Shown: one piece after another, positions 36,262-40,761 of the stretch
Numbering within the stretch: the stretch's first letter is position 1
Layout of the letters: the number at the start of each line of letters is the position of its first letter
DNA from: Dictyostelium discoideum
Taxonomy: Eukaryota
Length of the DNA stretch: 64,000 nucleotides
Assembly (NCBI GenBank): GCA_000004695.1
Contig: CM000152.2
Coordinates: 2,912,001-2,976,000 of the forward strand
Direction: 5' to 3'
Notes under the pieces: generated by a model
The model's input: the letters and a program-made list of their open reading frames with translations, nothing else
Told to the model about the DNA's origin: nothing
Database searches by the model: none
Position numbers and translations under genes: made by a program

Positions 36262-36688
36262 ATGAATTCACTTTCAATATTAAATAATATTGAAGATAAA
36301 GTTGTAGAGGCAATTAATACGGCAGCATTATCATTGGAATCATTATCAGCTTCTTTGGATATCGAAAATACCAATGAAAATTTCTCAAAATTTCAAACTC
36401 AATCAGATAAATTTTATAATTTAGTGAAAAAAGATATTCATAAAGGTTTAATAGATTTCATTGATTCAATGACTGATATTGCACCATTTGATCATTCAAG
36501 TTATCTAAAGAAATCAGAATTAGAAGTCTCTCATAATTTCACTGAAATCATTCTAAGTCATTTAGAAGATTTAAATAATATAGTTGAAAATAATCAAGAA
36601 AAACAAGAAAAAGAAAAACAAGAAAAAGAAAAATTAGAAAAAGAAAAATTAGAAAAAGAAAAACAACAATCAAATGAAATGAATATTG

Positions 36689-36693
<5 letters not shown>
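36262..36693 (+). CDS. Small coiled-coil protein, tentatively Mediator subunit 11-like
   Basis: The N-terminal LSILNNIEDKVVEAINTAALSLESLS resembles the MED11 N-terminal helix pattern L..LE.IE..I...L..AG..I.EL. The C-terminus has (EKEKQ)n. It is transcribed divergently from the MATH-BTB gene. Confidence 0.4.
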
Positions 36694-36943: not shown

Positions 36944-37630
36944 TTAATTTAATAAACCTTCATCTTCTTCTTCACCATCACCAAAACCAGAATCTCCTTC
37001 ATCGAATAAATTATTTGGATTATTCATTCTAGATTGTTTATTTAATAATCTATTATGATTTAAGAAATCTCTATTTTGTTCCAATTGTTGTTGTAATAGA
37101 TTTCTTCTTCTAACTTCATCACCATTTGAACTTTGAGATCTTCTATGACCACGTGCAGCAGGTTTATACAATGGTGGTGGCATTAAAGAATTACCACTAC
37201 CCTTTTGAGCAATACCACCTAAATTTGGATTTGAAATACTAGAGATTGATGATGATGAACTATTCAATGAATGTGGTGCTGATACATGACTATTATTATT
37301 ATTATTAATATTTACATTTGGTGCAAATGAAACATGAGGTTGGAATGATGGTTGTGTTGATTGTGGTACTGGTGGTGCATGTCCATTAATATTAAAATTA
37401 TCAAATGTATGTTGTGATTGTTGTTGTTGTTGTTGTTGTTGTGCTGCTGTTGTTGCTGTTGATGTTGTTGATGATATTGTTGTTGTGTAATAACATTTGC
37501 ATTTGAATGTGACAAACGACCCGTTGATGGTGATAATGGTGGTGATGACGATGGTGTTAAAATTAATGTATATAAACGAGCATCTTCCAAAGATGCTGAA
37601 TGTGGGAATCTTAATCCTTGTTGTTGTGGG

Positions 37631-37706
<76 letters not shown>

Positions 37707-37817
37707 GCTGTTGTGGGTGTTGTTGTTGTTGTAAATGATGAATATTTGGTGGGAGTGGTGGTTTCTTTGCACCAATTACAGGTGACAAACTACCAGGAGT
37801 TAATGATATTGGTGTAC

Positions 37818-37851
<34 letters not shown>

Positions 37852-39082
37852 TGATTGTTGATAACGTGGTGAAGGATTTGAGGTTGGTTCACTTAATCCG
37901 AAATTACCAAAACCTGACTCTGATGTATTGGTTGTAGTTGCCGAGAATGGATTAAATGTTGGTTCGGTTGAAAATGGATTACTACTATTTATATTATCAA
38001 ATGATGAATTCAAACTTGCATTACCTGATAAATTACCACTATTACTATTATTACTATTATTACTATTATTACTATTATTATTATTATTATTATTATTATT
38101 TAAATTTAAATCTGATAAACTACTATTTAATCTATTAAAACTATTACTTCTAACAATAGTAAAAGTTGGAGCAGTATTTGGTAAAGTTGGAAAGAAAATA
38201 TCAGAGAAACAAGGTACTTGTGCTAACTTTGTATATTGTTCCCTTAATCTTGTATACATTGATTGAAATTGATTAACACATGAAATTAACTTCATATCGA
38301 CATCACTAAATTGTTTTGATAAAACATCTATCGAACCACTAATAAAACAAAAGATACTATATGATGAACTATTTAATATATTTACACAATGTTGTAATAA
38401 TGAAATTGGAACATTACCACTACCACTACTATTACTACTACAAATATTATTAATACAATAATCTGATAAATTATTTTGAACTAAAAATAAATGATCCATA
38501 ATATCGAATAAAGCTTTAATTGTATTTATACTAATTGGATGATTATTACTATCTAATGATTCTGGTATACCCCATTTCATCTCTTCAAATGCAAAACTAC
38601 CATCAATCATATAATTCTTTTGATGAAATAATATAAATTTATATAACAATAATGAATAATGTGATAATAATTCACCTAATTGTAAATCTATATATATAAA
38701 ATGTTTAAAAATAAATAAATAAATAATTTTGTTAAACCCACCCTACTATTATTAATTATTCATTTATTTAAATAAAACTTACATCTATCTTTTTGTTTTG
38801 ACCAACCTAAATATAAATTATTAAATAAATCCTTACTATCATGAACATCGGATTTAAATTGTATATTATTACCCTCTGATAATAAAGCATGTACCAATAA
38901 TAATGATTTGAAACAAACTAAAGGTTCTTTCAATGGCCTCTTTACAATGATATGCATTGTACCTTTACCTGGTTTCATTGATTTCAATTTCAATAATAAT
39001 CCACTATCAAATGTATTAGTTTGATCATTATTTGTAAGTTGTGTAATAATATTTAAAATTTCTTCATTCGTTATATTATTTC

Positions 39083-39136
<54 letters not shown>

Positions 39137-40761
39137 TACTATTACTATTATCGTTACTATTTACATTAAATGGATTATTACTTAAATTCGTACGTGGTGA
39201 ATCCCTAAATGGATCATCAAAACTATTATTACTATTATTAGGAGGGAATGAAACTGGTTGAAGTGATGGTGTTGTACCTGGTGTCGCCCTTCTTTTTGGT
39301 GGTGTTGGACTTGGTTGTGAAATATTTCCATTACTATTACTATGTTCTAATCCATTACTATTATTTTCAATATTATTTACAACTGTTGGCGATGGTGATG
39401 GTGATGGTGATTGTGATGGCGCAGGTGGTGGTGGTGTTGGTGTTGGTGTAGTTTGTGATACAACCTTTGGTAATGGTTTTGGTATATTTTTACCATTTAC
39501 TATATTATTATTATTATTATTATTAATATTATTATTATTATTATTTATATTATTATTTTCATTATATGATAATAAAATATTTGATTTATGAGAAGGGAAT
39601 AATGGTTGTTGATTTCTTAATAAATTTAATTGATTTGTAATTTCAAAGATATTAGGTCTATTGATTGGATCAGGATTTAACATTATTTTAATTAAAGATA
39701 TTAAATCATTTGAATGAGTATGATTTGGGGGTATTGTATAATTTGAATTTAGTATACCTAATGAACCTGAATCTTCAAATGGTGTGACATAGAACAATAG
39801 TTTATACAACAGACAGCCCAATGCCCAGATATCGATTTTCTCATTGATGACTGGTGACCTGTAGAAATCGACAATCTCTGGCGCTCTGTATTGTAATGTG
39901 GTGTGACGTGATATATCGTCTTCGGCATTCTGCATCTCGGTTTTATTCTTCATTCTTGTGATTTCCTCGGTGGCTGACCCGAAATCACAGAGTTTGTAAA
40001 TGCCACTCTCTTCATCCAATAAAACATTTTCAACCTTTAAATCCCTATGAATTATCAATGGTTGTTGTGAATGCATATATGCAACCGATTCACAAATATC
40101 TTGAAAGATCTTCAATATCTCTTGATCTGTAAATTTACTTCCACTCGATAATCTCTTTTGCATTATCTCTACTAAATGTCCACCTGAACAATATTCCATC
40201 AATATAAACATCTCTGTATTATTCTTATCACTAACTTTATGATAATCTAATATTTTAACTATATTTTTATGTTTTGTTAATCTTTTCTATAAGATAATAA
40301 AAAAAAATAATAATAAAAAAAATAAAAAAAAATAAAAAAAGAGTTAGAAGGGAATAATAAAAAAAAAAAAAAAAAAAAAAATAGAAAATATTAATAAGGA
40401 AAAAAAAAAAAAAAAGATTTTTACCATTATTGAAATTTCATGTTTAACACCTTTTAATTCATCCTCATCCCTAATTAAAATTCTTTTTAATGCATAATGT
40501 TTTGAAGTATTTGAATCTTTTACTAAGAAAACATATGAAAAGCCACCTAAATTTTCAGGAAAAAAAATAAAATAAAAATAAAAATTTTATTTGAATATTT
40601 GAACTTGTATATATATATATATATATTTCAACACAAATTATCTAAAAAGATTATTTTTGTTATAAAAAAAATATATATTTATAAATACCTTCTGCAATTT
40701 GCTTAACAAAATTTAAATGATATGAACCAATTTTTAAAGTTTTACCTTGATTATTTCCCAT
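36944..40761 (-). CDS. NAK-family (AAK1/BIKE/GAK-like) Ser/Thr protein kinase with a very long low-complexity tail. Exons 40689..40761, 40425..40546, 38783..40286, 38687 to 37312 as read, or to 36944 if a 1-nt frame slip is corrected
   Basis: MGNNQGKTLKIGSYHLNFVKQIAEG runs into gtattt. Then GGFSYVFLVKD...YALKRI (glycine loop and VAIK-equivalent), HRDLKVENVLL, LCDFGSAT, TTLQYRAPEI and IDIWALGCLLYKLLFYVTPFE. A GTAAGT donor at 38782 and a tatatag acceptor at 38688 join it to the 445-aa track ORF. Frame C stops at 37312, but frame B continues plausibly to 36944. Confidence 0.8.

Follow-up and report, generated by a model that had tools for sequence, protein, structure and literature searches.

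DDB_G0280111 has four exons on the minus strand and encodes a NAK-family (AAK1/Ark-Prk-like) kinase with an ANTH domain. A change of reading frame divides its last exon; this is an ordinary single-base frame break, most probably an artefact of the Dictyostelium discoideum reference sequence. The segment beyond the break is clearly a genuine coding part of the kinase and is conserved across Dictyostelia. Coordinates throughout are those of the window, by which we mean the whole 64,000-nucleotide stretch of DNA that was analysed.

The kinase gene and its frame break

The gene model and its principal landmarks upstream of the break are as follows.

40689..40761, minus strand: exon 1, with the ATG at 40761 and the product MGNNQGKTLKIGSYHLNFVKQIAEG
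40425..40546, minus strand: exon 2, flanked by introns of 142 and 138 nt with GC contents of 0.11 and 0.09
38783..40286, minus strand: exon 3, with the bulk of the kinase domain, the linker and the beginning of the ANTH domain
37444..38687, minus strand: the part of exon 4 read in the upstream frame, with codon starts at 0 mod 3
37552..37611, minus strand: RFPHSASLEDARLYTLILTP, a conserved motif of the upstream frame that contains S932

In the spliced model the Pfam Pkinase domain spans residues 18-283 (E=5e-52) and the ANTH domain residues 512-742 (E=5e-13). A full-length query matches proteins named as AP2-associated kinase, NAK/BIKE and Ark/Prk, which places the product in the NAK family, and DDB0229350 is classed as Other/NAK in the Dictyostelium kinome (PMC1420674, Table S2). 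The gene is DDB_G0280111, because the exon 1 product is identical to the N-terminus of DDB0229350 in that table and because the numbering of S932 agrees: in the spliced model this residue lies within RFPHSASLEDARL, as in the dictyBase phosphosite numbering used in PMC6397043, where an entry in supplementary file 4 gives S932 as an in vivo phosphosite. The motif that contains it, RFPHSASLEDARLYTLILTP, is identical in four species (P. violaceum, T. lacteum, the source of sequence P0003, and the window). The linker bears NPF and DPF motifs; one stretch of the protein with motifs of this kind is NPFSTEPTFNPF at 37980-37945. The combination of a NAK kinase, an ANTH domain and NPF/DPF motifs would, as far as domain content can indicate, be typical of an endocytic accessory kinase. 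All of the dictyostelid orthologues share this joining of a NAK kinase to an ANTH domain, and one amoebozoan match in EukProt (P0015) has an ArfGap domain in addition. A literature text search found no mention of DDB_G0280111 or DDB0229350, and the NAK+ANTH kinase is absent from the text of a paper on ENTH/ANTH evolution.

Exon 4 also encodes, in frame, about 35 glutamines (QQQQHPQ...QHPQQQ) in a CAA-dominated tract at ~37630-37735 on the minus strand. CAA-rich tracts of this type are the sequences most prone to errors of read length and base count.

A reading of the sequence alone had placed a change of frame near 37450, with stops at 37312 and 36944, and a three-frame translation returns all of these coordinates. 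Upstream of the break only frame C (codon starts at 0 mod 3) is protein-like, reading ...RFPHSASLEDARLYTLILTPSSSPPLSPSTGRLSHSNANVITQQQYHQQHQQQQQQ; beyond it the same frame collapses to HNNNNNNNNHNIHLIILILMDMHHQYHNQHNHHSNLMFHLHQM, and frame B (1 mod 3) becomes the protein-like one, reading QQQQQQQQSQHTFDNFNINGHAPPVPQ...EEEDEGLLN with a GC3 of 0.03-0.07 to a TAA at 36946-36944. The elements around the junction are these.

Frame 0 mod 3 before the break, minus strand: ...GRLSHSNANVITQQQYHQQHQQQQQQ, GC3 0.11
Frame 0 mod 3 past the break, minus strand: HNNNNNNNNHNIHLIILILMDMHH...HLHQM, GC3 0.57-1.0, ending at TAA 37314-37312
37312..37443, minus strand: upstream frame carried on spuriously, as HNNNNNNNNHNIHLI...HLHQM, to its stop at TAA 37314-37312
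37441..37491, minus strand: interval holding the frame change, bounded by the conserved GRLSHSNANV (37521-37492) and by the CAA/AAC codon argument given below
37442..37443, minus strand: orphan CA between CAGCAG and (CAA)8, a CAA or CAG reduced to CA
37418..37441, minus strand: (CAA)8 tract, Gln8 in the downstream frame, which would be AAC-Asn in the upstream frame

As written, the window encodes a product of 1024 aa whose last 43 residues, after residue ~981, are non-coding-like. Insertion of one base after CAGCAGCA yields an ORF of 1147 aa that ends at the TAA at 36946-36944. The 1-nt indel proposed at cagcagca|caacaa does part a genuine coding tail from the body of the kinase, and a single inserted base repairs the ORF. 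The junction in the window reads CAGCAGCACAACAAC; in its short form it is CAGCAGCACAACAA, and the alternatives with an extra base are CAGCAGCAACAACAA and CAGCAGCAGCAACAA.

The position of the break can be narrowed by codon usage. In this gene, asparagine is encoded by 171 AAT codons and a single AAC, and glutamine by 73 CAA and two CAG; seven consecutive AAC codons therefore cannot be coding, and (CAA)8 at 37441-37418 is readable only as glutamine in the downstream frame. A codon-likelihood scan across all possible slip positions rules out a slip downstream of 37441 and is flat from ~37485 to 37443. The periodicity of the CAR triplets is interrupted only once, at CAGCAG-CA-CAACAA (37449-37436), and the orphan CA at 37443-37442 is the most parsimonious site of a missing base. 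The point named by the sequence-only reading is thus the sole break in periodicity, but its placement of the slip inside the (CAA)n tract has to be amended: from the likelihood scan, the slip lies at the 5' edge of (CAA)8 or at most ~45 nt upstream of that edge.

A conserved C-terminal tail in the dictyostelid orthologues

Beyond the break, the downstream frame encodes the following features.

36944..37417, minus strand: conserved C-terminal tail, SQHTFDNFN ... EEEDEGLLN, with the TAA at 36946-36944
37028..37189, minus strand: tail core, SLMPPP..GHRRSQS..RRRNLLQQQLEQNRDFLNHNR, in which HRRSQS and QQQL are invariant among six aligned sequences
36947..36967, minus strand: C-terminal EDEGLLN, in agreement with the acidic dileucine pattern [DE]xxxL[LI]

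The tail frame is open for 165 codons, an event with a probability of ~1e-6 by composition, and none of 200,000 shuffles is open over this length. It is 59% identical to the C-terminus of the P. violaceum orthologue over 82 aa (E=1e-24), while the frame-C continuation has no match in the orthologue (E=0.24). The 165 open codons, the GC3 of 0.03-0.07 and the 59% identity together rule out a pseudogene or a decayed gene end. An HMMER scan with the tail alone against 1.84 billion representatives returned three proteins, all of them dictyostelid NAK kinases in which the match falls at or close to the C-terminus. The protein and contig collections searched for relatives do not include the genus Dictyostelium. 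A 223-aa query of junction plus tail gave a false negative owing to its low complexity, since relatives with an identical stretch of 20 residues were in the database.

A full-length search recovered orthologues from P. violaceum (CYY_001614, P0001), T. lacteum (P0002), Acytostelium (P0004 and P0006) and Heterostelium (P0008), together with two EukProt entries. In all six orthologues that were fetched, the body (RFPHSASLEDARL...GRLSHSN) and the tail (HRRSQS...QQQL) lie within one polypeptide. The upstream half in these proteins has the form RFPHSASLEDARLYTLILTP..SPPLSPS.GRLSHSN, with a divergent form in Acytostelium P0006, and the tail half has SLMPPP, GHRRSQS and RRRNLLQQQLxQNRDFL, with FDNFN in the closest relative. 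The same holds in genomic DNA, where both motifs fall within a single uninterrupted ORF of 522 codons in P. violaceum (L001) and of 526 codons in T. lacteum (L002). A metagenome contig (Ga0256900_1005894, coordinates 3-2642; L003) carries an intron-less ORF of 880 codons that runs from the kinase domain through the ANTH domain and both motifs to the stop; it represents a Polysphondylium-like orthologue and is probably derived from a transcript, because it lacks the intron found at KQKDR|Y in the genomic loci. None of these orthologues ends at the frame-C stop, an outcome that would have told against the sequence-only reading; in all of them the frame-B tail follows.

The Med11 (Mediator subunit 11) gene lies at 36262-36693 on the plus strand of the window, convergent with the kinase gene, and the stop codons of the two are ~250 nt apart. 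The same arrangement of kinase and Med11 is found in T. lacteum (L002, 5540-5969), and this shared convergent neighbour supports orthology. The window and the dictyostelid NAK+ANTH orthologues thus have in common the Pkinase and ANTH domains, RFPHSASLEDARLYTLILTP, the HRRSQS/RRRNLLQQQL tail and, in T. lacteum, the Med11 neighbour; they differ in that body and tail share one frame in the orthologues, whereas the tail of the window is one base out of register.

Several elements of the tail can be described. HRRSQS, invariant among the aligned sequences, fits a basophilic-kinase consensus, and RRRNLLQQQLxQNRDFL is a conserved, helix-like segment. The acidic dileucine pattern at the end of the tail is present in four of six other C-termini that were compared, at or beside the end (T. 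lacteum, P0003, P0005 and L003), and P. violaceum has an ExxxLM variant. Acidic dileucine motifs of the form [DE]xxxL[LI] bind AP adaptor complexes, and EDEGLLN may therefore be a candidate adaptor-binding signal that is lost in the truncated model. The repaired tail would give rise to the peptides GSGNSLMPPPLYKPAAR, SQSSNGDEVR, NLLQQQLEQNR, DFLNHNR and the C-terminal MNNPNNLFDEGDSGFGDGEEEDEGLLN. The check for C-terminal peptides was made in phosphoproteome supplements, and no tail peptide is among the entries listed there; among those listed for PMC6397043, the one source of this kind that includes the protein, S932, which lies upstream of the break, is the only site for DDB_G0280111.

Origin of the frame break

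The deposited sequence would be one base short (or, equivalently, would contain two bases too many) at the 5' edge of (CAA)8 in the last exon, through an error of base calling or assembly in a low-complexity region of CAR codons in the reference. On this reading the real protein would have ~1147 aa, its last ~120 residues forming the dictyostelid-conserved tail, contiguous with the body, and the product of 1024 aa, ending at 37312, would be artefactual. Replication slippage in triplet repeats usually alters their length by whole units, and a change of 1 nt is typical of a base-calling error and atypical of a biological repeat artefact. There are precedents in the same genome. Frameshifts or stops in four kinase genes have been attributed to errors in the genome sequence and were corrected from reads and ESTs, and automated gene models were seen to mask such frame breaks by bogus introns or by truncation (PMC1420674). 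The errors in pXi, PakC, DNAPK and TRRAP resemble that proposed for DDB_G0280111 in that one frame break severs conserved downstream coding sequence in the same reference genome and is hidden by truncation or a bogus intron in automated models. DDB_G0280111 differs from these four in being unflagged, DDB0229350 / DDB_G0280111 carrying no correction flag in the kinome paper (PMC1420674), and in that its break lies in low-complexity sequence far from the kinase domain and, in contrast to those in the corrected kinases, comes to light only when other dictyostelid genomes are compared. The dictyBase papers are silent on the handling of frameshifts, and a scan of metagenomes for the exact DNA sequence, with a CAA gap of variable length, gave no matches.

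It is also possible, but rather unlikely, that the sequence is right and that the sequenced strain has very recently lost 1 nt, which cuts the kinase at ~981 and removes the tail. Such a deletion would leave the same sequence evidence as an error, and the perfect codon bias of the tail and its freedom from stops fit a very young lesion as well as they fit an artefact; the allele could be viable, with the kinase and ANTH domains intact. The conservation of the tail across Dictyostelia, however, argues for purifying selection on it. Furthermore, D. discoideum is reported to have a low nuclear mutation rate, and reference errors are named as an expected source of shared 'variants' (PMC3466296); errors in kinase genes of the reference are documented in PMC1420674, which reports no frameshifted single-copy conserved kinase. 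Given the precedents in the kinome, the low mutation rate together with acknowledged reference errors, and the conservation of the tail, we favour a base missing from the deposited sequence over a real recent mutation, and judge it the probable cause.

An intron at the break seems very unlikely. The sequence-only reading had seen no AT-rich intron there, and an enumeration of all GT..AG intervals of 3n+2 length that would rejoin the frames bears this out, since none fits. A short or atypical intron, of 62 or 26 nt for example, would restore the frame and leave both the genome and a long protein right, and GT..AG intervals of 3n+2 length that give an ORF to ...EGLLN do exist. The real introns of DDB_G0280111 are, however, 95-142 nt long with a GC of 0.09-0.14, and the norm for D. 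discoideum is 60-250 nt and under 15% GC (PMC1420674). Every candidate interval of at least 44 nt has a GC of 0.18-0.42 and would be taken from conserved codons, and the only AT-rich candidate is the 26-nt interval GTAAAT..ATAG (37290..37315, minus strand), which is too short, keeps the non-coding-like frame-C stretch and drops the conserved FDNFN. The 62-nt interval GTTTGT..AACAG (37456..37517, minus strand) would give a product of 1126 aa, but it has a GC of 0.31 and takes out the conserved RLSHSNANV, a stretch that belongs to the exon in L001, L002 and L003. That length would equal the length of the public protein entry for DDB_G0280111, which we take to be 1126 aa; the agreement is a weak one, as many intervals give similar lengths. 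The kinome paper treats introns of this kind as artefacts that mask frameshifts (PMC1420674).

If the public entry is indeed of ~1126 aa, the annotation covers up the frameshift with a coding-like pseudo-intron, at the cost of the conserved RLSHSNANV.

That the base count is right and the site is in use, either for a low level of -1 frameshifting that yields a long isoform bearing the tail or as a natural polymorphism that switches the tail on and off, is likewise highly improbable. Still less credible is a programmed -1 frameshift or transcriptional slippage at the CAG/CAA run that would reach the tail and generate two isoforms: the required shift is indeed -1, the tail ORF is intact, and frameshifting inside long CAG runs is reported in other systems, but an X XXY YYZ heptamer is impossible, as no base occurs three times in succession in 37491-37441, the 116 nt downstream fold less stably than shuffled sequences (MFE -2.8 kcal/mol, z = +1.36), no A or T homopolymer is available for polymerase slippage, and none of seven orthologous sequences needs a shift, so that the site is not conserved. 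Viral gag-pol -1 frameshifting employs an X XXY YYZ heptamer in the zero frame with a pseudoknot or hairpin downstream, such a stable RNA structure lying 5-9 nt after the slip site; the window shares with it only the direction of the required shift and differs in having neither the heptamer, nor the downstream structure, nor conservation of the site. The sequence-only reading had offered a sequencing error, a strain polymorphism and genuine slippage side by side, and they can now be ordered, with sequence error first, recent strain mutation second and genuine slippage far behind.

Consequences for the gene model

With an error in the reference as the preferred reading, the consequence is one for the gene model and its annotation, and no new mechanism is indicated. 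The public model of DDB_G0280111 would lack or distort a conserved C-terminal module, depending on how the break is handled, and what is at stake in that module is the HRRSQS site, the RRRNLLQQQLxQNRDFL segment and the terminal [DE]xxxLL-type motif. We advise that the repaired 1147-aa sequence be used for tagging, knockout or proteomics of DDB_G0280111. More generally, comparison among dictyostelid genomes can reveal residual single-base errors in low-complexity coding repeats.
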